A DNA stretch of 12,178 bases from a virus. Taxonomy: Duplodnaviria; Heunggongvirae; Uroviricota; Caudoviricetes. Positions 1-12,178 of this stretch are shown piece by piece. Numbering within the stretch: the stretch's first letter is position 1; every line of letters begins with the position of its first letter. Location of the stretch: positions 1 to 12,178 of IMG/VR virus record IMGVR_UViG_2778261086_000006; one strand, written 5' to 3'. Made by a program: the position numbers and the translations under genes. Under the pieces are notes generated by a model that was not told the DNA's origin, made no database searches, and worked only from the letters and a program-made list of their open reading frames with translations.

Positions 1-1362
1 ATGTTTAAACCGGAACTCCTTTCCCCGGCGGGAACGCTGAAAAATATGCGTTACGCTTTCGCTTATGGCGCAGATGCTGTTTATGCGGGCCAGCCGCGTT
101 ACTCCCTGCGTGTGCGCAACAACGAATTCAACCACGAAAATCTTCAGCTCGGCATCAATGAAGCCCACGCGCTGGGGAAAAAGTTTTATGTCGTGGTCAA
201 CATTGCACCGCACAACGCCAAGCTGAAAACCTTTATCCGTGACCTGAAACCGGTGGTGGAAATGGGGCCGGATGCGCTGATTATGTCCGATCCAGGGCTG
301 ATTATGCTGGTGCGTGAGCACTTCCCTGAAATGCCGATCCACCTCTCGGTGCAGGCTAACGCCGTAAACTGGGCGACGGTGAAATTCTGGCAGCAAATGG
401 GCCTGACCCGCGTGATCCTCTCTCGCGAGCTGTCGCTGGAAGAGATTGAAGAGATCCGCAATCAGGTGCCGGATATGGAGATCGAGATCTTCGTTCACGG
501 CGCACTGTGCATGGCCTACTCCGGTCGCTGCCTGCTCTCTGGCTATATCAACAAGCGCGATCCGAACCAGGGTACCTGCACCAACGCCTGCCGCTGGGAG
601 TACAACGTCCAGGAAGGGAAAGAAGATGACGTTGGCAACATCGTACACAAGTACGAGCCGATTCCGGTGCAAAATGTTGAGCCGACGCTGGGTATCGGCG
701 CGCCAACCGACAAAGTGTTTATGATCGAAGAAGCCCAGCGTCCGGGCGAGTATATGACCGCGTTTGAAGATGAGCACGGCACTTACATCATGAACTCGAA
801 AGATCTGCGCGCCATCGCCCATGTAGAACGCCTGACCAAAATGGGCGTGCATTCGCTGAAAATCGAAGGCCGTACTAAATCTTTCTACTATTGCGCACGC
901 ACCGCACAGGTTTACCGTAAAGCTATCGATGACGCCGCTGCGGGCAAACCGTTCGATACCAGCCTGCTGGAAACTCTGGAAGGTCTGGCGCATCGTGGCT
1001 ATACCGAAGGTTTCCTGCGTCGTCATACTCACGACGATTATCAGAACTACGAATACGGTTATTCAGTTTCTGACCGCCAGCAGTTTGTTGGTGAGTTTAC
1101 CGGTGAGCGCAAGGGGGACCTCGCGGCGGTAGCGGTGAAAAATAAATTCTCCGTTGGCGACAGCCTTGAGCTGATGACGCCGCAAGGCAACATTAACTTT
1201 ACCCTTGAGCACATGGAAAACGCCATAGGTGAAGCGATGCCGGTCGCACCAGGCGATGGTTATACTGTGTGGCTCCCGGTCCCGCAGGATCTTGAGCTCA
1301 ATTACGCTCTGCTGATGCGTAATTTCTCCGGGGAAACCACGCGTAACCCACACGGTAAGTGA
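1..1362 (+). CDS. yegQ: Peptidase U32-family protein YegQ (TrhP-like), complete
   Basis: ATG at 1, TGA at 1360-1362, 453 aa. Contains the U32 signature E-I-F-V-H-G-A-L-C-M-A-Y-S-G-R-C (nt ~481-531). Length and sequence match my recollection of E. coli YegQ, which lies next to cyaR. Confidence 0.88.
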   Translation: MFKPELLSPAGTLKNMRYAFAYGADAVYAGQPRYSLRVRNNEFNHENLQLGINEAHALGKKFYVVVNIAPHNAKLKTFIRDLKPVVEMGPDALIMSDPGLIMLVREHFPEMPIHLSVQANAVNWATVKFWQQMGLTRVILSRELSLEEIEEIRNQVPDMEIEIFVHGALCMAYSGRCLLSGYINKRDPNQGTCTNACRWEYNVQEGKEDDVGNIVHKYEPIPVQNVEPTLGIGAPTDKVFMIEEAQRPGEYMTAFEDEHGTYIMNSKDLRAIAHVERLTKMGVHSLKIEGRTKSFYYCARTAQVYRKAIDDAAAGKPFDTSLLETLEGLAHRGYTEGFLRRHTHDDYQNYEYGYSVSDRQQFVGEFTGERKGDLAAVAVKNKFSVGDSLELMTPQGNINFTLEHMENAIGEAMPVAPGDGYTVWLPVPQDLELNYALLMRNFSGETTRNPHGK

Positions 1363-1396
1363 TTAATTTCGATTATTTTTCCCGGATGGAAAATTC

Positions 1397-1439
1397 TTAG
1401 AAACCGATCACATACAGCTGCATTTATTAAGGTTATCAT
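1397..1439 (+). promoter_or_regulatory. Candidate CyaR promoter: imperfect CRP-like site (TTAGA-N6-TCACA, 1397-1412) and -10-like TATCAT (1434-1439)
   Basis: Read directly upstream of the sRNA 5' end at 1447. CyaR is known to be CRP-activated. Left half-site is a poor match, so the exact site is uncertain. Confidence 0.35.
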
Positions 1440-1446
1440 CCGTTTC

Positions 1447-1533
1447 GCTGAAAAACATAACCCATAAAATGCTAGCTGTACCAGGAACCACCTCCTTAGC
1501 CTGTGTAATCTCCCTTACACGGGCTTATTTTTT
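1447..1533 (+). ncRNA. cyaR: CyaR (RyeE) Hfq-dependent small RNA
   Basis: Sequence GCTGAAAAACATAACCCATAAAATGCTAGCTGTACCAGGAACCACCTCCTTAGCCTGTGTAATCTCCCTTACACGGGCTTATTTTTT matches my memory of E. coli CyaR. It ends in a GC stem plus T6 intrinsic terminator and sits right after yegQ as in K-12. Confidence 0.85.
1507..1533. repeat. attL core: 27-bp direct repeat AATCTCCCTTACACGGGCTTATTTTTT, overlapping the CyaR terminator
   Basis: Identical 27-mer recurs at 11665-11691. Left copy is preceded by bacterial cyaR sequence, right copy by phage int-distal sequence. Confidence 0.85.
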
Positions 1534-1597
1534 ACGTACAACAAATTGAAATAAAAGGATTTATTTCTGGTCACGTCCACACATTGACCACATCGAC

Positions 1598-1622
1598 AAA
1601 AAAGCCCCTCGACTGAGGGGCT
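1598..1622 (-). terminator. Rho-independent terminator downstream of ogr (minus strand); potentially bidirectional
   Basis: Perfect stem AGCCCCTC/GAGGGGCT (1603-1610 / 1615-1622) with 4-nt loop GACT. On the minus strand it is followed by U6 (A-run 1598-1603 on +). On the + strand it is followed by TTCTGTTT. Confidence 0.6.
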
Positions 1623-1634
1623 TTCTGTTTGTAA

Positions 1635-1853
1635 TTACATCCACATAATTTGCTGCCCTGACGGCAACGGGTGTGGCCTTACGGCGTGGACTTCTCCCGG
1701 CTTCACGATGTATCGCTGTACCGACTCATAAGTGATGAACGTGGCGCTGCAATTCACGTTCTGACACTGGTGATAACGCTCTTTTGTCGTGTCAGTGATA
1801 TAGCGGCTTGTACGCGCATGTGCGGCATGCTGGCATAAAGGACAATGAAACAT
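1635..1853 (-). CDS. ogr: Ogr, zinc-finger late-gene transcriptional activator (72 aa)
   Basis: ATG at 1851-1853 with GGAAGAGGTG Shine-Dalgarno upstream. Protein MFHCPLCQHAAHARTSRYITDTTKERYHQCQNVNCSATF... has the Cys motif and matches recalled P2 Ogr / K-12 OgrK. The 93-aa track ORF is an upstream extension and unlikely to be real. Confidence 0.9.
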   Translation of the reverse strand: MFHCPLCQHAAHARTSRYITDTTKERYHQCQNVNCSATFITYESVQRYIVKPGEVHAVRPHPLPSGQQIMWM

Positions 1854-1934
1854 CGCGAGCACCTCTTCCGGTTTTATTGATGGTGCCATTTTAGTTAATT
1901 TATCCTTATAAAACAAACAGATAAAATAAAAACA

Positions 1935-3098
1935 TCACTCATCATCTTCTGTTTCGTACTCCACATCAGAAAGCCTGACCTCAAGCTCTAAAGACGTCGT
2001 GAAGCCGCTATTATTCAGAAAATGTGTCACCTTAGTGATTGTCCAGTCCTGCTCGTCTATGACGCGCTTAAAGCCTGACACTTTAACCGGTGTTTCCGTG
2101 TAAATATCTGCCCGACCGGTAGCCAGGCTGATGGAGAACTCCGCCACACCCCGTTGCAGTTTATCCCACTTCGCCTGAGCGGCGCGCATGGCCTGCGCTT
2201 TCGTGGCATATACCGTAGTCAGGGCAAAAACGTTGTCAGCCTCACCGGCCATGTATTCACCTTCGCGCGCTTCCGGTACTTTTGGCGCTTTCTTCTGCGT
2301 GACCGGTTTCGCTTTCGGGTGCTCCAGTGCGCGCAGGTGTTTTTCTTTCTTTTTGCGTTTCAGTTTTACCTTCTGCTTTTGCGGCTTCGGGTCTTTGGTG
2401 TGTAACCACTTTGCCGTTACGCCGGTGTAAGCTCCACGGTCAGCAATCGCAAAATGATGACGGTCGCCGTCGCTGCGGGTGATGGTAATCTGCGGGATTT
2501 TTTTACCGCTGGCCGTCACCCCCTGCCCCGCTTTGAGAAACAACAGTTTTCCCATTTTTACCGACACCTCACCGCCGTTGCGTTCTGCAAGACGGGTCAG
2601 GAATTTCGCATCAGACTCCTGCGACTGGTCGATGTGCGGGATTTTAATTCCGGCCAGTGACGGAGCGACACTGGCTTCCAGCCTGTTACGGGAGGCTATC
2701 GCTTCAACAATCGCACCGAGTGTGGTGTCATGCCAGGAGCCTTCCCGGCGGGAATTGAGCGTCCCGCGAAAATCTGCACTCCGGGCGCGGATGGTGACCA
2801 CATCCGGCGCGCCCCGGTGTTCAACCTCATCAACGGTGAATTTCCCTTTGCATACCAGGGCAAAACCTTTCCAGCCGATATACACCGTCAGGACAGCGCC
2901 ACGAACCGGTAGCCCGACCTGCCCGTCGGCATCGTTCAGTTCAATATCAAGCTGGTCAGCCTCAAAGCCCCGGTTATCCGTCAGGGTCATGCTCATCAGA
3001 CGGTCGCTGATATTGCCGGTAATATCCCTGCTGTCGAGCATCAGCATGTAATCCGGCGTCAGCGTACTGCCTGCATCAAATGTCAGTGCATCCAGCAT
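1935..3098 (-). CDS. D: Tail protein D (P2 gpD-like), 387 aa
   Basis: ATG at 3096-3098 overlapping the U stop. Length and position (between U and ogr) match P2 gpD as recalled. Confidence 0.82.
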   Translation of the reverse strand: MLDALTFDAGSTLTPDYMLMLDSRDITGNISDRLMSMTLTDNRGFEADQLDIELNDADGQVGLPVRGAVLTVYIGWKGFALVCKGKFTVDEVEHRGAPDVVTIRARSADFRGTLNSRREGSWHDTTLGAIVEAIASRNRLEASVAPSLAGIKIPHIDQSQESDAKFLTRLAERNGGEVSVKMGKLLFLKAGQGVTASGKKIPQITITRSDGDRHHFAIADRGAYTGVTAKWLHTKDPKPQKQKVKLKRKKKEKHLRALEHPKAKPVTQKKAPKVPEAREGEYMAGEADNVFALTTVYATKAQAMRAAQAKWDKLQRGVAEFSISLATGRADIYTETPVKVSGFKRVIDEQDWTITKVTHFLNNSGFTTSLELEVRLSDVEYETEDDE

Positions 3099-3577
3099 TA
3101 TCCCGCCCCCGTCATCCCCGTGAATCTGGTCGCCATACTGCCAGCTTTACCGATGAGCGATTCCGCCTGTTTACCGATATCGCCATAAAGCGCGGCCAGT
3201 GATTCATCAACGCGGGTGAGCGACAGCGTAAAATCAATTTTCCGGGGTGTGCCGTCTGCAAAGAAAATACTCCCTGTTTCACTTACCCTGCTGATGACAT
3301 ACATGCCGTAAATCATGCCGGTGCCATCCAGCAACGGCCACGCCCGGCCTTCATCTGCCATCAGCCTGAGCGTGGTCATCGTCAGCTTTCCGCCGGTCAG
3401 TTCGGGATAAAGCACACCGGCAAGCGTCATGTTTTCCTCACCCACACCGAGAAACTGGTAGGCCTCCCGTTTACCGATACGGGAATTTGACGGCCAGCGA
3501 TAATCTGATTCACGCTGCATGGTCTGGTGTGGCAGCGTCTGGCGCATAAAAACAAACATACCTAACGCGAGCATCAT
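3098..3577 (-). CDS. U: Tail protein U (P2 gpU-like), 159 aa
   Basis: ATG at 3575-3577. Protein MMLALGMFVFMRQTLPHQ... Length and synteny match P2 gpU as recalled. Confidence 0.8.
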   Translation of the reverse strand: MMLALGMFVFMRQTLPHQTMQRESDYRWPSNSRIGKREAYQFLGVGEENMTLAGVLYPELTGGKLTMTTLRLMADEGRAWPLLDGTGMIYGMYVISRVSETGSIFFADGTPRKIDFTLSLTRVDESLAALYGDIGKQAESLIGKAGSMATRFTGMTGAG

Positions 3578-3591
3578 TTTTCGTCACCTCC

Positions 3592-3903
3592 TTAACCGTC
3601 ATGCATCATGCTGGCACGGGCGCGCGCACGTTTATCCCGCTCGTATTTTTCGAGCGCATCCTGTAACTGGCGGTCAAGCTGTGTCCCCGGCGCAGTACCA
3701 CCCGTCAGGCTGATGTGATATTCGTTTTTACTCTGGTCCACATAAGAGCGGCCAGCCGGTGCCGTAACCGGCTGATAAGCCTGATAACCTGCATAAGAGC
3801 TGGTCGCCGGAATATAACCACCGGTGCCATACGTGGCGGCATGAGTCCTTGCGGCGGTCTGGTCAAGTGTGTCTGACTCTTTGTTGATAACCGTCGCGGC
3901 GAA
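3592..3903 (-). pseudogene. 3' fragment of tape-measure gene T (C-terminal ~103 codons, no start codon)
   Basis: Minus-strand frame translates to ...[41 protein letters not shown]...YHISLTGGTAPGTQLDRQLQDALEKYERDKRARARASMMHDG then TAA (3592-3594), directly upstream of U as in P2. The frame is closed by stops beyond 3904 and has no initiator. Confidence 0.55.
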
Positions 3904-4645
3904 TCAGCGTTGTGACGCCAGACTCGTTCAACAGGTCAGCATCGGTGCCGGACTCCTGCAAATCCCAGAATACAGATGCGCTGATGCCGGTAACACCGTT
4001 TACCCCGACGTTGGACAGCGTTTTATGCCAGCCCTGCTCCTGGTCGATTTTAGCGCGCAGACCCAGCGCACGGGCGGTGGCATACGCGGTGGCGGTGGTA
4101 CTGGTGACCGTATCCCATGCGAGGAAAACCGTAATTACATCGCCGTCGTAAGCCACACCACCGGCGAACAGGTAGCCGGGAATGTCCCGGGTAATGTTCA
4201 GGCCAATAAGATGACGGCTTGCAGGTTTGGCATCAGCAATCAGCCGTTCCATTTCCTGATACATTGCCTCTGTGATGCCACTTTCCAGTACACCAATATC
4301 AAGCCGGAAGGTGCCGGGCGGGTCACTGTTTTCCCACCACTCCGTCACGTTGATGAGATAGCCGAGCGGCTCCACCACACGCCGGATTGCACCGATAGTG
4401 CCCTTATGACAGTGGATGAAATAGGCATCGCGGATAACGGCGCGTTTTGTCGCTTCCGGCCACTTTTCATCCCACCTGTCGACCGAAAACGCCCACGCCA
4501 GCCACGGCAGCAGATTTGCCGGACAGGTATCCGGGTTCCACAGTTCACGAATCCTGACCGGCGTTTTTTCAATTTCCGCACAGGCTTTTGCGGCGGCAAC
4601 TTCAAGCGGTGATGAGCCGGTCGGCAGCAGTCGCGAATCACTCAT
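3863..4645 (-). CDS. Baseplate protein I-like ORF with aberrant C-terminal extension (260 aa); probable deletion-fusion product
   Basis: ATG at 4643-4645 overlaps the J stop. The N-terminal part ([26 protein letters not shown]...) resembles P2 gpI, which I recall as ~176 aa. This ORF instead runs 260 codons and reads into the T-fragment region in a different frame. Confidence 0.55.
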
Positions 4646-5546
4646 CCGAGCCTCCGGTCACGACGCGGTATTCGGTACAGAAAGACGCCTGCGTACTGTT
4701 GAGCACGATGTCGGCCAGCGGTGCAGTCAGTTCGACACGCTGCACGCCTTCCACATGCAAAGCGGCATAAATGGCAGACAGACGGATGTCGCGCCCCAGC
4801 CGGTGCTGTGCCGTGATGTACGCTTCCAGTTTTTTCACGGCAGCAGCGCGTATGGGTTCGCTTTCGGGACCAGGGTAAAGGTAAAGCGTGGCGTTTATCT
4901 GGTATTCAACGATGGCGGCAGACTGCACGGTCACGCGGTCGGCCACCGGCCTGACGTCCTCGCCATTAAGGGCGTTACGCACCACCGCCAGCAGGTCTTC
5001 GGATGCGACACCGTTATTTTCACGTGACAGCACAGAGATGGTGACGCAGGCCGGAGACGGACTGGTTACAGAAATATCCGCGACACGCCCGTCGGCACTG
5101 CGACCATGATACTGATAGGCCCCCACCGACCCGGCGACGCTTAAACCTTCAAACGCCTGCTGAATACGCAGACGATAATCCGTGTCAGATTCCATCACTG
5201 CCGGTGTCGGCGGGATGGTCGAATCATCTTCCAGGGTGATAATCAGGCGCGTGGTGTTGTAATTGGCACCAATCACATCAAGGTCATTACCGGCAGCACA
5301 GGCCAGCATCACCGCCCGTGCGGCCTCATTCACACGCTGACGCCAGATAAGCTCACGATAAGCATTTTCCTCCAGCAGTTTGACGAGAGGCTCAGATTCC
5401 AGCGTCAGGGTACGGGCGACCGCCTCCTGCTGGTCTTCCGGGTAAAGGGAAATCAGTGTCGCCTTGCGTTCGGCAAGAATGGTTTCAAAGTCCAGCTCCT
5501 CAACCACATCCGGTGCGGGTAGCTGGTTCAGGTCGATAATCGGCAT
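4638..5546 (-). CDS. J: Baseplate protein J (P2 gpJ-like), 302 aa
   Basis: ATG at 5544-5546. Length and synteny W-J-I match P2. Confidence 0.82.
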
Positions 5547-5550
5547 GGTT

Positions 5551-5898
5551 TCAACTCACAGGAATGGTTAACGAAAGTGGCTGGCCGGTGTCGTTGTGCT
5601 GGCCGGTTAACGTGACCGTCATTCGCCCGTCAAAACTGCGCTCAGTGGTGACGGATGACAGGGTGACGCGGGGTTCCCATTTCAGCACCGCCATGTAACA
5701 GGCGACCTTAATCTGCAACTCAAGCGCCGGGGTCTGCGGCTGGTCAATCATTGACGCCAGCAACGAGCCGTAATCACGACGCATCACCCGCGAGCCGACC
5801 GGTGTGCGCAGGATATCGCCGATACTCTGGCTGATATGCTCAAGGTCAGTGACAGTCAGGCCATCACTGCGATTCATTCCGAGATAACGCGCAGTCAT
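5551..5898 (-). CDS. W: Baseplate protein W (gp25-like), 115 aa
   Basis: ATG at 5896-5898 overlapping the V stop (TGA 5895-5897). Length and synteny match P2 gpW. Confidence 0.82.
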   Translation of the reverse strand: MTARYLGMNRSDGLTVTDLEHISQSIGDILRTPVGSRVMRRDYGSLLASMIDQPQTPALELQIKVACYMAVLKWEPRVTLSSVTTERSFDGRMTVTLTGQHNDTGQPLSLTIPVS

Positions 5899-6530
5899 AG
5901 AGGTCCCCCTGTTGTGCCGCCGCTGTCGCCGGGGTGTTTATGGGTATGAAGTACCTTACCGTTTGATGAGAGTTCACCGCCGGTGTGTTCAATGTTGCCG
6001 CGCATCGTCCCGCCCTTCTGCACTTCCAGCGTGCCGGTAATCAGCCTGTTGGTGCAGACCACCTCCGGTGTGTCCAGGGTGACGCGGGTTGATGCTTTCA
6101 CCATGACCACCGGCACCGTGGCGGTAACAGAATCAGAAGCCGTCACGCTGGCCGTTTTAATTCCGCTTACCGTAAGTGCACTGGTTTCGGGTTCATACTC
6201 AATCACCGCCCCGTCAGGGAAACGGATATGCAGGGCATCCGCCGACGCAGACGGCGGAGGGTTATCGCCGGAATAAATCCCCGGCAGAACAAACGCCGTG
6301 TCAAGTTCACCGCCCACGGCCAGAATCAGCACCTGCTCCCCCACGGAAGGTGCCCACCATGTGCACGAACGTCCGGCGCGATGGGTCAGCCACTGAAGCC
6401 AGTCGGTGCACATGCCGCCGGTCTGCACACGGCAGCGACCGGCTTTAAGGTTGGTTTCGACGACAAGGCCGGTACGAATCATGTTGCGCAGTGCGCGCGC
6501 GAGTTCCTGAATATTTGCGAGAGTGTTCAT
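5895..6530 (-). CDS. V: Baseplate spike/hub protein V (P2 gpV-like), 211 aa
   Basis: ATG at 6528-6530 gives MNTLANIQELARALRNMIRTGLVVETNLKAGRCRVQTGG... The track ORF start at 6566 is a TTG 12 codons upstream and is less likely. Confidence 0.78.
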   Translation of the reverse strand: MNTLANIQELARALRNMIRTGLVVETNLKAGRCRVQTGGMCTDWLQWLTHRAGRSCTWWAPSVGEQVLILAVGGELDTAFVLPGIYSGDNPPPSASADALHIRFPDGAVIEYEPETSALTVSGIKTASVTASDSVTATVPVVMVKASTRVTLDTPEVVCTNRLITGTLEVQKGGTMRGNIEHTGGELSSNGKVLHTHKHPGDSGGTTGGPL

Positions 6531-6607
6531 AACGGGAAGGATGCCGCTGGACGATACCAGCAGCAATCATGGAGGATTCTGTCAGCTGTGACACAACATA
6601 ATAAATA

Positions 6608-7363
6608 TTAGTTGTAGCACTTCTCTATAATCTTCATACACTCCTCATGAGCTAAATCATGGCTGTCAAATTCTTTATTAAAAAAGAAGAAAAACGCCTT
6701 CTTAACCTGAGGCATTTCAATAAAAATAAATTCATCAACCTTATGAAAGAAATGAAAACTCTTGTTTGATGTTTCAAAAACCATCAAAGAATTATGTTTT
6801 TTATCCTTCCATTTCGACATCAGATTGCGTCGCGATTTTCGTATAATCCTGAAGACATCCCCCGGCGTCGTATCGACATTCCCCCAAAACATTGCAACCG
6901 GAAAGTTTGCAAGGAACGGGATATAATCACCACCTTTATACCTGAGAAAGCGGTTCCGCAAATCCATTAATTGCAACTTAAAACCCATGTATTGCAACCA
7001 CCATATGATGCAATCATACTCATAATCTGTTAACTCCTCTCCCCTCTTTTCCGTAAGAAATTTCTTCAGGTTATACTCAAACACTCCCAGCAAATCAGAA
7101 TTGCACACTCTGCATGCTGGTACAGTGGCTTTAATGTAATGAGTTGACTGATTATTCTTTTTATTAATTAAAGATTTTTCAGTATTTGACTCAAAGGCCC
7201 ACTGAGGAATAATGTGCTCACGAGTAATATCGTCAGAACTCCCGCATAACACACATATATCAGCATTATGGTCAACAATAATACAATCCATAACTTTCTT
7301 TTGAGAGTGCTTTACTCTTTTTCTCAAAATAGAAAACTTTTCATCCATAAACACCCGTCTCAT
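6608..7363 (-). CDS. AT-rich cargo (moron) ORF, 251 aa: N-terminal Cys4 zinc-finger HNH-type nuclease motif plus ~160-aa C-terminal region of unknown function
   Basis: ATG at 7361-7363 overlaps the S stop (ATGA); TAA at 6608-6610. A sampled 60 nt (6621-6680) is ~32% GC against visibly GC-richer flanks. Motif C-V-L-C-G...D-D-I-T-R-E-H-I-I-P-Q-W-A-F...C-R-V-C-N fits the CxxC...DH-I-x-P...N...CxxC pattern of HNH nucleases. It occupies the S-V slot where P2 carries its non-essential moron orf30. Confidence 0.7.
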   Translation of the reverse strand: MRRVFMDEKFSILRKRVKHSQKKVMDCIIVDHNADICVLCGSSDDITREHIIPQWAFESNTEKSLINKKNNQSTHYIKATVPACRVCNSDLLGVFEYNLKKFLTEKRGEELTDYEYDCIIWWLQYMGFKLQLMDLRNRFLRYKGGDYIPFLANFPVAMFWGNVDTTPGDVFRIIRKSRRNLMSKWKDKKHNSLMVFETSNKSFHFFHKVDEFIFIEMPQVKKAFFFFFNKEFDSHDLAHEECMKIIEKCYN

Positions 7364-7818
7364 ATAACATCTTTCGATAGAATCACTAATAACTCCCTTT
7401 CTATCAATTGTATAGATTCCTTGTCAAAACCAAATAACTCACGAACAGGATATTCCACCACAGCACTATTACGCCCCGGCTTATCCTTAAGCCCTAATTG
7501 ATGTACTCGCGCAATTCGTTGCACTCCGCTGGCAAACTCCACCACCGCCGCACTCTCGCTACCTGTTGCTTTCATAAACCGGTTAGTGCGTAATTTCACA
7601 AACATTTCCCGCTTTATCCGGCCTTTCTTATTTCGCACTGGCTGGTTTTTTCTCGGTACATACGGCGTACCATCTGGGCCTTTTTGTAATTTAATTCGCT
7701 GCTGCTGGCGCTGGCGCAGTTTCTTCGCAATATCTACCGCCAGTCGCCGACGCCCTGACGGTGACAGCGACTCAATCAGTCCGGTCATCCGGTCTTCAAA
7801 ACGCTTAAACTCATTCAT
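7360..7818 (-). CDS. S: Tail completion protein S-like, 152 aa, with AT-rich 3' end
   Basis: ATG at 7816-7818 overlaps the R stop. Position between R and V matches P2 gpS. The last ~25 codons (nt ~7364-7440) are AT-rich, unlike the rest of the gene. Confidence 0.68.
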   Translation of the reverse strand: MNEFKRFEDRMTGLIESLSPSGRRRLAVDIAKKLRQRQQQRIKLQKGPDGTPYVPRKNQPVRNKKGRIKREMFVKLRTNRFMKATGSESAAVVEFASGVQRIARVHQLGLKDKPGRNSAVVEYPVRELFGFDKESIQLIERELLVILSKDVI

Positions 7819-8278
7819 CCCACTTGCTCACCAGTTCGCCATTGATATAAAGCTCCACCGGGCGGGTGACCGGCTCCGGCGGCGGAGGTTCCGGGATATT
7901 CTTCACATGCAGCGCACCGTCAACCTCACTGACCAGCGTGCGCTCGGTCAGCATCAGGCTGATACTGATATCAAAGCTGCTGTCATTGTTGATGTCTGCA
8001 TAAAATGTGAAGCCCTTTTTCTGGCCTTCGTCGGTGGTCATGATGTCGGGCTGATTTTCCCGCAGCCACGCCAGCACCGGCACGATGAGCAGGTCAAAAT
8101 CACCGGTAAAGTCGGTCACAATCACATTGAGCGTGTAACGCTTTTCGAATGACAGCGACGCCGCCAGTGTGGAGGCAATACTCCCGTTATCCACGAATAT
8201 CCGCAGCATCTCGGGGTTAGTTTTCAGCACCGTGACGGCATCAGTCAGCGCCCTGCGCAGGCTGTCGGGTTTGAGCAT
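7811..8278 (-). CDS. R: Tail completion protein R (P2 gpR-like), 155 aa
   Basis: ATG at 8276-8278 with AGGAAG Shine-Dalgarno 7 nt upstream. Length and sequence match recalled P2 gpR. Confidence 0.8.
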   Translation of the reverse strand: MLKPDSLRRALTDAVTVLKTNPEMLRIFVDNGSIASTLAASLSFEKRYTLNVIVTDFTGDFDLLIVPVLAWLRENQPDIMTTDEGQKKGFTFYADINNDSSFDISISLMLTERTLVSEVDGALHVKNIPEPPPPEPVTRPVELYINGELVSKWDE

Positions 8279-8340
8279 CGTTTTCTTCCTGACAGTGTTT
8301 AATCATTTTTACCTGGCTGGCACAACGTGCCAGCGCGTTC

Positions 8341-8502
8341 TCAAGCTGCCGGATAAGCTGCACGACGGGCAGCAGGTATTGGCGCGTCACACTCTTCGCA
8401 AACCAGCGCAGAAACACCGCAATGCTTTACCCTTGCCGCGTTAATCTGGCGCTCCAGTAATTCAGCCTGTTGTTCCTGAATAAAATCCACGTTGTCCGGC
8501 AT
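8341..8502 (-). CDS. Small TraR/DksA-type zinc-finger-like ORF (orf82 position), 53 codons, apparently truncated
   Basis: ATG at 8500-8502 overlaps the orf81-like stop. Translation MPDNVDFIQEQQAELLERQINAARVKHCGVSALVCEECDAPIPAARRAAYPAA then TGA. The CEEC-x-IPxxRR knuckle is present but the second CxxC is missing; downstream in-frame sequence (..TLCQPGKND) looks like a degenerate remnant. Confidence 0.4.
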   Translation of the reverse strand: MPDNVDFIQEQQAELLERQINAARVKHCGVSALVCEECDAPIPAARRAAYPAA

Positions 8503-8804
8503 TACCAGCTCCTTTTGTCGTTCAGTTTCTTAAATTCATCAGCGCAATAGCTGGCAATTTCAGCCGTTACTTTTGTCAGTTCGTCTACGGAGGAAATTTG
8601 CTTGTGAAATACAGCGCGTTTCACAAGTAAATTGACCACATCAGACAGGAGGTTTAATTCGTTCTGATAAATCGCGATAACAGATTCAGTTATTTCGTGT
8701 TTTTCTTTATCAAGCCTAAGTTGAATAAGAGACAAATCGCCATTTTTCATAACGGAGATTTTTAAGGCATTGTTCAGTAATACAATTGAACGAGAACAGG
8801 ACAT
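8502..8804 (-). CDS. P2 early-operon orf81-like protein (100 aa from ATG)
   Basis: ATG at 8802-8804 (the track start at 8807 is a TTG). Lies between the orf80-like and orf82-like ORFs as in the P2 early operon. Confidence 0.65.
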   Translation of the reverse strand: MSCSRSIVLLNNALKISVMKNGDLSLIQLRLDKEKHEITESVIAIYQNELNLLSDVVNLLVKRAVFHKQISSVDELTKVTAEIASYCADEFKKLNDKRSW

Positions 8805-9028
8805 CAAAGCACCTCCCCGCGAGACAATCCGATATTGTGAAATTTTTCCGACTCCTGACTGAGCAGCTCGACTATCTCCACGCGGGATAACTCCGCCTTT
8901 GTGATGTGGCGAATCATGGCGTCAAGATGAGAAGAAAAGCGCGTCGCTGCATCGGCCTGTGCTTCGGTTCTGGCCTGTTGCAGCAGTAATGCGTATTTAC
9001 CGCACTGATTTTCAGAAACTATATGCAT
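8804..9028 (-). CDS. P2 early-operon orf80-like protein, 74 aa
   Basis: ATG at 9026-9028. Position directly downstream of B in the early operon. Confidence 0.65.
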
Positions 9029-9091
9029 GACTTTCTCCAGGCAAAAAGAAGCCCCGCACGATTAAGTGCGTTAAAAACTCTGGTTAATTAT

Positions 9092-9592
9092 TTAATGCAG
9101 ATATTGCTCTGGTTTAACCGACGTCAGAATTGTCGGTGCATACTCAAACAGGCTGAATAATTCACGTAATGCACGGAATAAAGCATCACGCCAGTAACAT
9201 GACTCTTCATTAATTCGCCAGTATGGCTGGTTGAATTCTTTTTCAGTCAATCCGGCATGCATAAATAAAGTACGACGCTGACTGACTGTTAAAAAACTAA
9301 TATATGCATACTCACTTGCGCCAACCTGACGGCGTTTTGAGAATGCACCACGCAATTCATCAATTGCACATACCAGTCGTTCACGTTCGACGTCGTTCAT
9401 TTCTTCAAAACACATCGTTGCGTGACGCTGTTTTAACTGAGCATGGAAGCAAACCGTTAACCGTTCGCGCTCCATCATCTGATTATAATAATCGCATGTC
9501 TCCTGCCAGCGAGGGACGGCCAGATGCTTACCAATTATCCGGCGCATAGCTGCTGGCTGTTTTTCAACGAGATTGAGCGTCATCACTGTCAT
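9092..9592 (-). CDS. B: Replication protein B (P2 gpB-like), 166 aa
   Basis: ATG at 9590-9592 overlapping the orf78-like stop. Length and synteny cox-orf78-B match P2. Confidence 0.8.
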   Translation of the reverse strand: MTVMTLNLVEKQPAAMRRIIGKHLAVPRWQETCDYYNQMMERERLTVCFHAQLKQRHATMCFEEMNDVERERLVCAIDELRGAFSKRRQVGASEYAYISFLTVSQRRTLFMHAGLTEKEFNQPYWRINEESCYWRDALFRALRELFSLFEYAPTILTSVKPEQYLH

Positions 9593-9759
9593 TTCCAGAC
9601 CCTCCGGCTTTTCAGAAAGGTCAGAGCCTTTTTTAACGGACTCTGTTTTTTGGTGCGGATAATGATTCCCTTACGCCCCTTACCGTGGGTGATGGTGAAG
9701 TCAATCGCCCTGGGGCTTTCGTTACGCAATAACTGAGCAATACAACGAGGCTCATTCAT
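9589..9759 (-). CDS. P2 orf78-like small early protein (56 aa from ATG)
   Basis: ATG at 9757-9759 preceded by AAGGAGAA Shine-Dalgarno. The track's 64-aa version starts at a GTG (9781-9783) inside cox. Confidence 0.6.
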   Translation of the reverse strand: MNEPRCIAQLLRNESPRAIDFTITHGKGRKGIIIRTKKQSPLKKALTFLKSRRVWK

Positions 9760-9769
9760 ACGGTTCTCC

Positions 9770-10045
9770 TTAACGTGGTTCACCGAGACCTAACCACATC
9801 AACCAGCCGTCACGAATCTCTTTAGGACGGCTTTCATAAGCCAGTTTTAGTCCGTTATTCCATGCCGGAAGGTATACCCAATATTCACCAGCACGCCCCG
9901 ATACTGACTGAGGGTCAGTAATCTCAATAACTGGTAATTTCCCTTTCTCAATCATGCCCCTTACAGCTCTTGGAGTTTTACCAATGAGTTTTGCAAACTC
10001 CTGATAAGGCACGGCATCAGTCACGCTTACAAGCTGTCTATTCAT
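9770..10045 (-). CDS. cox: Cox, excisionase and repressor of Pc (91 aa)
   Basis: ATG at 10043-10045. Protein ...DAVPYQEFAKLIGK...GKLPVIEITDPQSVSGRAGEYWVYLPAWNNGLKLAYESRPKEIRDGWLMWLGLGEPR matches recalled P2 Cox. Divergent from C. Confidence 0.9.
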   Translation of the reverse strand: MNRQLVSVTDAVPYQEFAKLIGKTPRAVRGMIEKGKLPVIEITDPQSVSGRAGEYWVYLPAWNNGLKLAYESRPKEIRDGWLMWLGLGEPR

Positions 10046-10166
10046 CTGCTACGATTCTCCCTTAGTGCTTCTAATGGCTCCTAATGGCTAATTATTGCCT
10101 AAAAGGATAACTCCAGAAGCACAACATTTCACACTATCAGCAAGAAATTACGCAATCGGAGTAATT
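10046..10166. promoter_or_regulatory. Pe/Pc immunity-switch region between cox and C, with tandem 10-bp direct repeats CTAATGGCTC / CTAATGGCTA (10071-10090)
   Basis: Divergent cox and C genes flank this 121-bp region. The tandem repeat is read directly and is a candidate operator (C and Cox both recognise direct repeats in P2). Promoter hexamers not mapped. Confidence 0.5.
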
Positions 10167-10466
10167 ATGTCAATAGACGTTTCGGAGAAGTTGAAGCTAA
10201 TCCGTGAATCTGAAAGGTTAAACCGTAAAGAATTCAGTGAATTAACTGGTGTAGCCTACAGCTCACTTTCGAGCTATGAGAGCCGGTCAAAAAACGCTGG
10301 AGTTGAAGCCATAATGAAGGTCTTACAACATCCCAGATTTACTAAATATACTTTGTGGTTCATGACTGATCAGGTAGCTCCAGAAGCCGGGCAAATTGCG
10401 CCCGCTCTCGCACACTTTGGGCAAAACGAAACAACGTCGCCCCACTCCGGTCAAAAGACTGGTTAA
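10167..10466 (+). CDS. C: Immunity repressor C (P2 C-like), 99 aa
   Basis: ATG at 10167-10169 with GGAG 6 nt upstream. The C-terminal half (...FTKYTLWFMTDQVAPEAGQIAPALAHFGQNETTSPHSGQKTG) matches recalled P2 C. The 123-aa track ORF starts at an upstream TTG. Confidence 0.88.
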   Translation: MSIDVSEKLKLIRESERLNRKEFSELTGVAYSSLSSYESRSKNAGVEAIMKVLQHPRFTKYTLWFMTDQVAPEAGQIAPALAHFGQNETTSPHSGQKTG

Positions 10467-10581
10467 CAATTTATCGTGAATATATTCATCACAAGTGCCT
10501 ACTATTGGTGGCTAAATTTCAGCCACCACGAAAAAAGCGATTAGTAGTAGCAAAAAAAAGTACCACTCGGAGGGTTTTCTG

Positions 10582-11595
10582 ATGGCAATCAAAAAACTCG
10601 ATGATGGTCGATATGAAGTGGACATCCGCCCTACTGGACGTAACGGAAAACGCATCCGTAGGAAGTTTGATAAGAAAAGCGAAGCTGTCGCTTTCGAAAA
10701 ATACACGTTGTACAACCACCACAATAAAGAATGGCTATCAAAACCAACAGACAAACGACGTCTGTCGGAACTGACACAGATCTGGTGGGATTTAAAGGGT
10801 AAACACGAAGAGCATGGGAAATCTAATCTTGGAAAAATTGAAATCTTCACAAAAATAACGAATGACCCATGCGCATTTCAAATCACGAAATCCCTTATCA
10901 GCCAGTACTGCGCCACCCGAAGAAGTCAGGGTATTAAACCTTCGAGTATCAATCGTGATTTAACATGTATTAGCGGCATGTTTACAGCCCTGATTGAAGC
11001 GGAGTTATTCTTTGGTGAGCACCCTATCAGAGGGACAAAGAGGCTTAAGGAGGAAAAACCAGAAACAGGCTATCTCACACAGGAAGAAATTGCCTTACTG
11101 CTTGCAGCACTTGACGGCGACAACAAAAAGATTGCGATTCTTTGCCTGAGTACAGGAGCACGTTGGGGAGAAGCAGCTCGTTTGAAAGCAGAAAATATCA
11201 TCCATAACCGCGTCACGTTTGTTAAAACGAAAACAAACAAACCACGCACCGTCCCGATCTCAGAGGCTGTTGCCAAAATGATCGCGGATAACAAACGAGG
11301 TTTTTTATTCCCTGATGCTGATTACCCTCGCTTCAGACGAACAATGAAAGCAATAAAACCGGATTTGCCAATGGGGCAAGCCACACATGCACTAAGGCAC
11401 AGCTTTGCCACTCATTTCATGATTAATGGAGGAAGTATTATCACGCTACAACGGATACTAGGTCACACGCGGATTGAGCAAACTATGGTTTACGCTCATT
11501 TTGCGCCAGAGTACCTTCAGGACGCCATTTCTCTTAATCCGCTAAGAGGTGGTACTGAGGCCGAGAGTGTCCACACAGTGTCCACAGTAGAGTAA
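10582..11595 (+). CDS. int: Tyrosine integrase (P2 Int-like), 337 aa
   Basis: ATG at 10582-10584 with GGAGGG upstream. C-terminal catalytic motifs present (..ATHALRHSFATHF...LGHTRIEQTMVYAHF). Lies next to attR downstream of C, as in P2. Confidence 0.9.
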   Translation: MAIKKLDDGRYEVDIRPTGRNGKRIRRKFDKKSEAVAFEKYTLYNHHNKEWLSKPTDKRRLSELTQIWWDLKGKHEEHGKSNLGKIEIFTKITNDPCAFQITKSLISQYCATRRSQGIKPSSINRDLTCISGMFTALIEAELFFGEHPIRGTKRLKEEKPETGYLTQEEIALLLAALDGDNKKIAILCLSTGARWGEAARLKAENIIHNRVTFVKTKTNKPRTVPISEAVAKMIADNKRGFLFPDADYPRFRRTMKAIKPDLPMGQATHALRHSFATHFMINGGSIITLQRILGHTRIEQTMVYAHFAPEYLQDAISLNPLRGGTEAESVHTVSTVE

Positions 11596-11664
11596 CGTTT
11601 AAGGGCTTTCAGTGGTAATTTATGCCGCTCAAACCCGCATTGTACCGTTGAAAGCCCCTACTGG

Positions 11665-11691
11665 TGACACCCTAAATCTCCCTTACACGGG
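11665..11691. repeat. attR core: second copy of the 27-bp direct repeat, followed by one extra T
   Basis: Identical to 1507-1533. Located ~70 bp downstream of the int stop. Confidence 0.85.
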
Positions 11692-11765
11692 CTTATTTTT
11701 TTATGCATAAGCCCTATCTCTGGTAACCGTCTTCCATTGACCACATCGATAGAATCCTCCTTCAT

Positions 11766-11798
11766 AGCACGATGCCTTTCACTTATCGGCATCGTGCT
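11766..11798. other. Perfect 11-bp inverted repeat AGCACGATGCC...GGCATCGTGCT (hairpin, 11-nt loop) between attR and yegR
   Basis: Read directly. Lies downstream of the yegR stop on the minus strand but has no U-run on either strand, so it is not a canonical intrinsic terminator. Confidence 0.3.
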
Positions 11799-11860
11799 CC
11801 CACAGGTTCCGGCTACGCACAGCCAGAACGCGCATATTTGACGCTTACCAAAAAATATTC

Positions 11861-12178
11861 TCACTCTCCACATTTGAATGTCAGACGAGCGACACCATGT
11901 AATCCTACACCTTCTGTCTTCAGCTCAACTATTTGCATTTTTTTGCCCTGAGTAACACAGAAATGAGTTGCATCATTTTTTACTATATTTTCTGCACCAG
12001 ATATTCTACCCCTGGCTAAAGAAGCTTCGGCTTCGGTGTAGTATTGGTTATCGAGTTTACGCTGAATATTACTTTTATATGCAAGACCAAATTTACCGAT
12101 ACTTGTCTCATCATTATGCACAGCACAACCAGACATAATAAAAATACTAATTAATGATATAGCAGCTATCTTTTTCAT
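11861..12178 (-). CDS. yegR: YegR-like small lipoprotein, 105 aa, complete
   Basis: ATG at 12176-12178 (window edge). N-terminal signal peptide with lipobox (IMSGC). Length and position match E. coli yegR near cyaR/ogrK. Confidence 0.8.
   Translation of the reverse strand: MKKIAAISLISIFIMSGCAVHNDETSIGKFGLAYKSNIQRKLDNQYYTEAEASLARGRISGAENIVKNDATHFCVTQGKKMQIVELKTEGVGLHGVARLTFKCGE

Follow-up and report, generated by a model that had tools for sequence, protein, structure and literature searches.

The stretch of DNA that we analysed (the window, 12,178 nt, positions 1 to 12,178 of IMG/VR record IMGVR_UViG_2778261086_000006) holds a P2-type prophage beside the small RNA gene cyaR. The DNA to the right of the int-side junction of this prophage, which should be plain chromosome, carries a second and diverged copy of a sequence from the arm of the phage attachment site. 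Why should host DNA beyond an att core look like phage DNA? The first-pass annotation had answered that a P2-type relic already occupied the site when the resident element integrated. Our comparisons bear this out and refine it: there is a relic, but it is neither the ogrK-D' remnant known from K-12 nor a peculiarity of this strain. We believe that the block at 11715–11749 is very probably the decayed Int P-arm site of an ancient P2-type element, which would have been integrated by Int at the cyaR core in an ancestor of E. coli. This reading is carried by the phage-native nature of the arm, the derived status of the flank, longer alleles of the flank, and remnants of a P' arm and a core at its distal end.

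Following the P2 convention, we call the arm next to ogr P and the one next to int P'. The left junction of the window is therefore cyaR-core-P, and the right junction is P'-core-flank. The P2 att core is made up of the 3' half of the cyaR terminator and its T-run, and the 27-bp repeat that borders the resident element is the annotated attP core of phage P2. The features of the locus are collected in Table 1. In a blastn comparison, the resident element of about 10.1 kb aligned with P2 in five collinear pieces of 91–97% identity, which were separated by large gaps in P2 coordinates. It retains ogr, D, U, J, W, V, R, orf80-82, B, cox, C, and int, together with parts of T, FI, I, and S. Compared with P2, it lacks all capsid, terminase, lysis, tail-fibre, and A genes. 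H/G, most of FI-T, tin, and old are also absent. By its sequence, the element is a defective P2-type prophage. Its exact arrangement was found in one piece in none of the complete E. coli genomes of the collection, where the best coverage was 65%. Window positions 6531–7593 had no match in P2; a 251-aa ORF on the minus strand (6608–7363) lies there, at the position of the P2 orf30 moron, and is probably a different cargo gene.

Table 1. Features of the cyaR locus (positions in the window, except for the last line).
Feature	Position	Strand	Remarks
yegQ	1–1362		
CyaR (RyeE) sRNA gene	1445–1530	+	Rfam RF00112, 100.7 bits, E 1e-19
att core copy 1, 27 bp, AATCTCCCTTACACGGGCTTATTTTTT	1507–1533		Junction of cyaR and ogr-side P arm; perfect direct repeat with 11675–11701
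IHF site of resident P arm	1532–1565		Mapped from AF063097 protein_bind feature
Resident P2-type prophage, internally deleted	1534–11674	-	ogr, D, U, T', FI fragment, I', J, W, V, non-P2 ORF, S', R, orf82'-B, cox, C, int
Int arm-type site of P arm, intact copy of the block	1569–1596		Boxes GTCCACA (1575) and GACCACA (1586); P2 annotation 'Int, P arm'
ogr terminator	1601–1624		Mapped from P2 GenBank annotation
P' arm Int boxes, two TGTCCACA	11567–11590		Boxes at 11568 and 11579; 3' end of int; P2 annotation 'Int, P' arm'
att core copy 2	11675–11701		Junction of resident P' arm with putative fossil; perfect direct repeat
Putative fossil P arm	11702–11750		Shortened spacer (11702–11714), then decayed Int arm site (11715–11749)
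E. coli-specific putative fossil insert, part in window	11702–12178		About 318 bp more past the window end
Two hairpins 3' of yegR	11767–11829 (11767–11799, 11806–11829)	-	RNA fold -45.3 kcal/mol, z -3.5
yegR, 105 aa, orphan gene inside the insert	11861–12178	-	RefSeq annotation
Putative decayed P' arm and core at insert end	K-12 (L001) ~3190–3295		

The observation from which the question arose proved sound in most of its details. The 15-mer CATTGACCACATCGA occurs exactly twice in the window, at 1582–1596 and 11735–11749, as had been noticed, and two matches were found in 0 of 200 dinucleotide shuffles. The surrounding block, which had been put at about 35 bp and 75% identity, extends over 40 nt without gaps at 75% identity (1562–1601 vs 11715–11754), or over 36 columns with gaps. 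The gapped alignment has a local score of 38, whereas 2000 shuffles gave a mean of 17.3 (sd 2.4) and a maximum of 29. The motif TCTGGT stands 16 nt upstream of the 15-mer in both copies (1566–1571 and 11719–11724), so that the equal spacing that had been claimed holds, and the phage-side copy does adjoin the ogr terminator. The distance from the core was given correctly as 49 nt for the phage side. For the chromosomal side, the 43 bp of the first-pass annotation has to be replaced by 34 nt from the end of the 27-bp core, and the two registers are thus 15 nt apart. Neither direct alignment nor the phage search gave convincing similarity for the window allele past these 40 nt or so. When the flank (11702–11870) was compared at low stringency with 50,697 phage records, the only matches were two records that contain host flank and chance 24-nt matches in Vibrio phages. 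The 36-nt block is below database significance in such a collection and was therefore compared by direct alignment.

By the P2 annotation mapped onto the window, the phage-side copy of the block is the site at which Int binds the P arm, and the resident P arm is 99.3% identical to that of P2. [quoted passage not shown] GTCCACA and GACCACA, the two boxes of the block, represent this consensus in reverse complement. Many P2-like phages matched the P arm without matching the core. In an alignment of P2, YPM4, L-413C, R18C, P24B2, and Klebsiella phage Kp4845, the IHF box, both Int boxes, and CATCGAC were common to all, and the last five of these phages have cores that are unrelated to the P2 core. 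The same module was present in cyaR-site prophages of at least eight other genera, including Trabulsiella, Citrobacter, Scandinavium, and Enterobacter. Because it is common to phages with unrelated cores and to cyaR prophages across genera, we consider the P-arm module to be phage-native. The comparison of the flank with the ogr-proximal arms of P2-like phages, which the first-pass annotation had proposed as a check, thus gave a match with a P arm that is not tied to one core.

The copy in the flank is a degenerate version of the same module. It keeps a single intact Int box, GACCACA at 11739–11745, which is identical to the corresponding phage box and whose reverse complement TGTGGTCA matches the arm consensus at 7 of 8 positions. 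At the position of the second box, GTCTTC stands in place of the phage GTCCACA. The IHF box AAATAAAAGGATTTAT is absent from the window allele, and alleles B and C retain only GGATTGAT, which lies opposite GGATTTAT of the phage IHF box. With its second box destroyed and its IHF box lost or half kept, the sequence of this arm is not that of a functional P arm. It also has the subtype-specific bases of the P2/YPM4 arm.

Other E. coli alleles preserve more of the arm than the window does. In strains YL03, 7/2, and CFIAFB20140388, the spacer between core and block is 11 nt longer (core followed by ATACATAAACCGTAAAGACGGATTGATCCCTGGTC). From the core as far as CATCGAT, alleles B and C could be aligned with P arms of several genera, and the only gap was one of 4 nt. 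The spacer between core and block measures 13 nt in the window allele, 24 nt in alleles B and C, and 28 nt in P2, and the core-to-box distance accordingly differs by 11 nt among alleles and is 4–15 nt shorter than in the phage. By this comparison, the allele of the window and K-12 is the longer allele minus a further 11 nt. The four E. coli alleles gave z values of 8.6–11.4 against P arms, and the proximal end of the insert is thus homologous to a P arm. The 30 nt around the surviving box vary less than the adjacent hairpin region, a comparison of four alleles only, and in allele C the box itself is mutated to GACCAAA. At 11689–11714, an inverted repeat of 8 bp without mismatches (GGGCTTAT ... 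ATAAGCCC) bridges the boundary between core and flank; the K-12-type allele is the only one with an intact copy, and the repeat is degraded in the longer ones.

The flank belongs to the species and not to the strain. Positions 11702–11900 were found in 5418 of 5426 complete E. coli genomes, with 100% identity in K-12. An artificial junction query, in which cyaR and the core were joined straight to the flank, matched in one piece in 4203 of the 5426 genomes. For example, E. coli C122 has core and flank without a younger prophage and matched at 100%. The block thus belongs to the regular attB of sites without a younger prophage. The ancestral junction without the insert was found in one piece in none of the complete E. 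coli genomes, and H125, a candidate for such a genome, turned out to carry a prophage. These results indicate that the insert is fixed in E. coli.

K-12 offers a second check that had been proposed. Its order is cyaR/core, P arm, ogrK, truncated D, partial core (CTACACGGGCTTATTTTTTT), and then the same flank with the block and yegR. The K-12 interval between cyaR and ogrK resembles the phage-side arm of the window, not the flank, and the flank follows beyond the partial distal core of K-12 without similarity to ogr or D. The ogrK-D' remnant ends as a 20-nt partial core fused to the truncated D (L001 2481–2500), and its deletion runs from inside D into the distal core. The K-12 remnant is therefore a separate and younger layer, which is nested between cyaR and the flank in the same way as the prophage of the window.

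To place the flank in a wider frame, YegQ loci of 80 Enterobacteriaceae species were collected, in 68 of which the distance from core to yegS was measurable. The cyaR core is conserved across the outgroup loci with 0–3 mismatches. In 50 of the 68 species, yegS begins 74–144 nt after the core, and in Escherichia sp. E1V33 the distance is 85 nt, whereas it is about 870 nt at E. coli sites without a younger prophage. The empty sites of the outgroups share a recurring motif after the core, TTTCATCCTGTTCT[G/T]AC ... GATACACTT, which in E. albertii stands beyond the distal core of the relic. The E. coli-type flank was found in no outgroup species examined, neither at the empty site of E1V33 nor beyond the relic of E. 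albertii, and the insert is thus derived. The time of its insertion is poorly bounded, because only two Escherichia lineages other than E. coli were sampled.

An old insertion at the core predicts that the ancestral motif, and possibly also a degenerate core, should be present beyond yegR; both were found in K-12. The ancestral B-arm motif, as GACTTTCATCCTGTTCTGAC, lies beyond yegR and just upstream of yegS (L001 3303). Seven nucleotides before it, at the spacing of E1V33, stands AATCCTCCATACTTGAACTGACTTTTT, which matches the core at 18 of 27 positions; across 5.2 kb and both strands, no other 27-mer except the two real cores matches so well. Strain YL03 has 19 of 27 at this place. At a fixed position, such a match has a binomial probability of about 1e-4 to 2e-5. 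The decayed core ends 88 nt before yegS, exactly as does the true distal core of the E. albertii relic. Immediately upstream, CCATTGCAAGCTCCTGGTGGTAAC resembles the end of the P' arm, CCGTTGAAAGCCCCTACTGGTGAC. When the end of the P2 P' arm plus core was compared with this place in an anchored 60-nt test, the score was 19 (shuffle mean -9.6, maximum 7), which was reached by 0 of 5000 shuffles and 0 of 5000 genomic 60-mers. An unanchored local alignment of the P' arm with the K-12 intergenic region was weak (score 22, shuffle p about 0.04); the match is convincing because its position is fixed by the outgroup comparison. The distal end of the insert is thus homologous to phage attachment sequence as well.

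About 18 other species have inserts of 0.24–4.4 kb between core and yegS, and several of these carry partial distal cores 78–88 nt before yegS (25/27, 23/27, 23/27, 19/27, and 18/27). Relics with partial distal cores occur in E. albertii, Enterobacter, and other genera. Such similar inserts in other species show that relic formation at the cyaR core is recurrent. Six Enterobacter loci (L010, L073, L075, L079, L085, and L087) share an insert of about 550 bp that reaches from the core to the ancestral motif upstream of yegS; it has no trace of a P arm and only weak distal core matches (14–16/27). One of these, Enterobacter hormaechei B17-3 (L010, 6001–8170), encodes a YegQ with 100% amino acid identity to that of the window and has the E. 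coli-type core with 0 mismatches, and the DNA past its core is the Enterobacter insert. From its sequence, this locus would be either a recombinant or a labelling problem.

The interior of the E. coli insert tells less about its origin. The insert measures 795 bp in K-12 and 973–985 bp in alleles with a 170-bp indel, and its GC content is 38–40%, compared with 50–58% in yegQ and yegS. Besides yegR and the two hairpins 3' of this gene, it comprises an AT-rich upstream region. Searches at the DNA and protein levels detected no gene of P2 or of another phage in it, apart from matches to records that include host flank. When the four alleles were compared by six-frame tblastn and short-word blastn with P2, the resident element, and 12 cyaR-site prophages or relics, the P-arm block was the only similarity. 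The intergenic region between yegR and yegS likewise matched, among phages, only the same record contaminated with host flank. The 170-bp indel is AT-rich and lies just 3' of the yegR stop codon (L003 3656–3829, and also in E. coli Nissle-type and L099 alleles), which corresponds to about 11856–11857 of the window; it holds a 41-aa ORF (MHIFILSVMGYSSTPLLNVSNNDKQIDETKAEFLFYAAIRK) that one phage record annotates as hypothetical. The hairpins at 11767–11829 are probably the 3' end of yegR and have no similarity to phages. They lack a U-run and vary more among alleles than yegR itself. We had considered the hairpin at 11767–11799 as a relic of the ogr terminator, but it has no sequence similarity to it and fits a 3' structure of yegR.

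YegR homologues are found almost only in E. coli and Shigella. The protein matched no family in a local copy of Pfam, and in PHROGs it matched phrog_21109, a family that was probably built from prophage predictions extending too far into host DNA. Two deposited phage records, ON470606.1 (Escherichia phage vB_EcoM-720R8) and AY639599.1 (Phage TP), include chromosomal flank of E. coli (yegR, yegS, gat repressor; yegQ fragment). Host flank in deposited records probably explains the PHROGs family of YegR. Distant homologues (P0070, P0074, P0050, and P0038) lie in IS-rich or ordinary chromosomal contexts and not in phages, so these relatives were set aside as a pointer to a phage origin; a further homologue, P0048, comes from a frameshift-ridden assembly. 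Inactivation of yegR has been reported to give no phenotype in chemostats (PMC3708739).

Other explanations of the block have to be weighed against an old integration. That two AT-rich intergenic stretches resemble each other by chance is hardly credible: the block is short and the alignment outside it is poor in the window allele, but the shuffles never produced two copies of the 15-mer or an equal local score (z about 9–11), and the distal core and P' arm, which had been predicted, give independent support. It is just as implausible that the flank is part of the K-12 ogrK-yegZ relic or was made by the integration of the resident element. Both share the locus with it. However, the K-12 remnant has a partial core of its own with the identical flank after it, its cyaR-ogrK interval matches the other arm, and flank and block are present in the 4203 genomes without a younger prophage. 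Integration duplicates the 27-bp core only, and unoccupied sites have the block, which excludes the duplication by the integration mechanism that the first-pass annotation had named as the finding that would speak against it. It had also named an end of the similarity at 35 bp. On the proximal side of the window allele the similarity does end there, but this is overridden by the longer alleles and the distal remnants.

The likeness could also have arisen in the opposite direction, if P2 had acquired its P arm from the E. coli DNA that follows cyaR, aberrant excision being one possible route. The flank in attB and the P arm in attP do lie at corresponding places, on the same side of the core, and elements at tRNA genes are known to have host-derived, extended homology between attP and attB, with long common cores mentioned (PMC3448106). 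We nevertheless regard such a capture as very improbable. The module with both Int boxes and the IHF box is found in phages with other cores and hosts and in prophages of many genera, while the E. coli copy is the degenerate one, with one box destroyed and the IHF box truncated. The flank is missing from all empty sites of the outgroups, and the capture leaves the decayed distal P' arm and core unexplained. Under a different proposal, the block, with its Int box and partial IHF site, functions within attB or has come to do so, and selection has retained it because it influences P2 integration or excision there. The surviving box, with its match to the consensus and its identity to the phage box, would suit this, as would the lower variability around it, although four alleles are too few to show constraint. 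The cyaR site is also the preferred P2 site of E. coli C. Against it stand the mutated box of allele C, the destroyed second box, and the variable distance between core and box, which is hard to fit with a fixed nucleoprotein geometry. On sequence grounds retained function seems unlikely, and it would be compatible with a fossil origin instead of an alternative to it.

We therefore return to an ancient integration at the cyaR core and propose the following history. The ancestral order would have been yegQ-cyaR-(about 85 nt)-yegS. A P2-type element may have integrated at the 27-bp core of cyaR after the split from the E. albertii and E1V33 lineages, which would have given cyaR/core - P arm ... 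P' arm - core - yegS. The interior would later have been lost or replaced, leaving about 0.8–1.0 kb of AT-rich DNA including yegR, which may have come along with the element. The proximal core serves as the cyaR terminator and for this reason stayed perfect, and the distal core, without such selection, would have decayed to 18–19 of 27 positions; the sequence of these steps is likewise conjectural. With its proximal core intact, the site (core plus fossil) remained usable as an attB for P2 and was used repeatedly. The later users would be the element behind the ogrK-D' remnant of K-12, the 10-kb deleted P2 of the window, and full prophages elsewhere, each located on the cyaR side of the fossil. 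That later P2-type phages integrated between cyaR and the fossil explains why a P arm-like sequence stands right of the resident int-side junction. The label 'prophage' is applied to the oldest layer on the basis of about 60 nt of sequence at one end and 60–100 nt at the other.

One further idea follows from this arrangement, and we put it forward as a doubtful one. The canonical E. coli attachment site of P2 would then not be a naive attB but the cyaR-core-P arm edge of a species-wide fossil, in which the surviving Int box and half IHF site, to judge from their letters, might still bind Int or IHF. In that case, any resident prophage would have a pseudo-attP at its int-side junction (P' arm - core - fossil P arm), and the fossil could affect the integration efficiency of P2-type phages or the stability of their prophages, compared with the fossil-free sites of other species.

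At the textbook P2 site, the cyaR terminator, P2-type insertions appear to be layered, and no fewer than three generations of them can be read at one locus. This suggests an origin for the E. coli-specific orphan gene yegR, which may be cargo or a survivor of the ancient integration. For annotators, the sequence to the right of the int-side junction is not plain chromosome, and programs that set prophage limits from att repeats or arm motifs can be led astray; this host flank is already part of one GenBank phage record. The locus also provides a natural decay series, from the intact prophage through relics of 10 kb, 3.4 kb, and 0.6 kb to the 0.8-kb fossil, which could be useful for understanding how prophages decay and why erosion affects the distal att repeat but spares the one next to the gene. 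In the searchable full-text literature, which does not cover the 1992 paper on the P2 attachment site, we found no earlier description of a phage-derived yegR flank, and a prior description is possible.

The fossil can be compared with several known systems. The cryptic P2 remnant of K-12 (ogrK and the yegZ/gpD pseudogene) has the same att core and orientation and went through the same process of internal deletion, and its distal core is partly deleted. In contrast, it is younger, restricted to some strains, and has recognisable P2 genes, whereas the fossil lies outside it, is fixed, and consists of arm and core remnants only. With the P arm of P2 attP (AF063097), the fossil shares its position relative to the core, the subtype bases (TCTGGT.AC and CATTGACCACATCGA), and one identical box. 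It differs from this arm by the destroyed second box, the lost or half-kept IHF box, a spacer that is 4–15 nt shorter, and the lack of an ogr terminator or ogr after it. The relic of E. albertii NBRC 107761 (L012, 3.4 kb between cores) has the same core, a truncated P arm, and an intact end of the P' arm, and its distal core (25/27), 88 nt before yegS, lies at the same anchor point as the decayed core of E. coli. Unlike the fossil, it is far less decayed, and it is an independent insertion into an ancestral site that was free of the fossil.

At tRNA and tmRNA att sites, serial or tandem occupancy by islands and prophages leaves decaying att repeats. As at cyaR, selection on the RNA gene keeps the proximal repeat there, distal repeats decay, and newer elements insert beside the gene. 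The cyaR locus differs in that the target is the terminator of an Hfq-dependent sRNA and in that the oldest layer is fixed in the whole species. The fossil is thus a new instance of a well-known phenomenon, in which prophage remnants decay while their att site is used serially.
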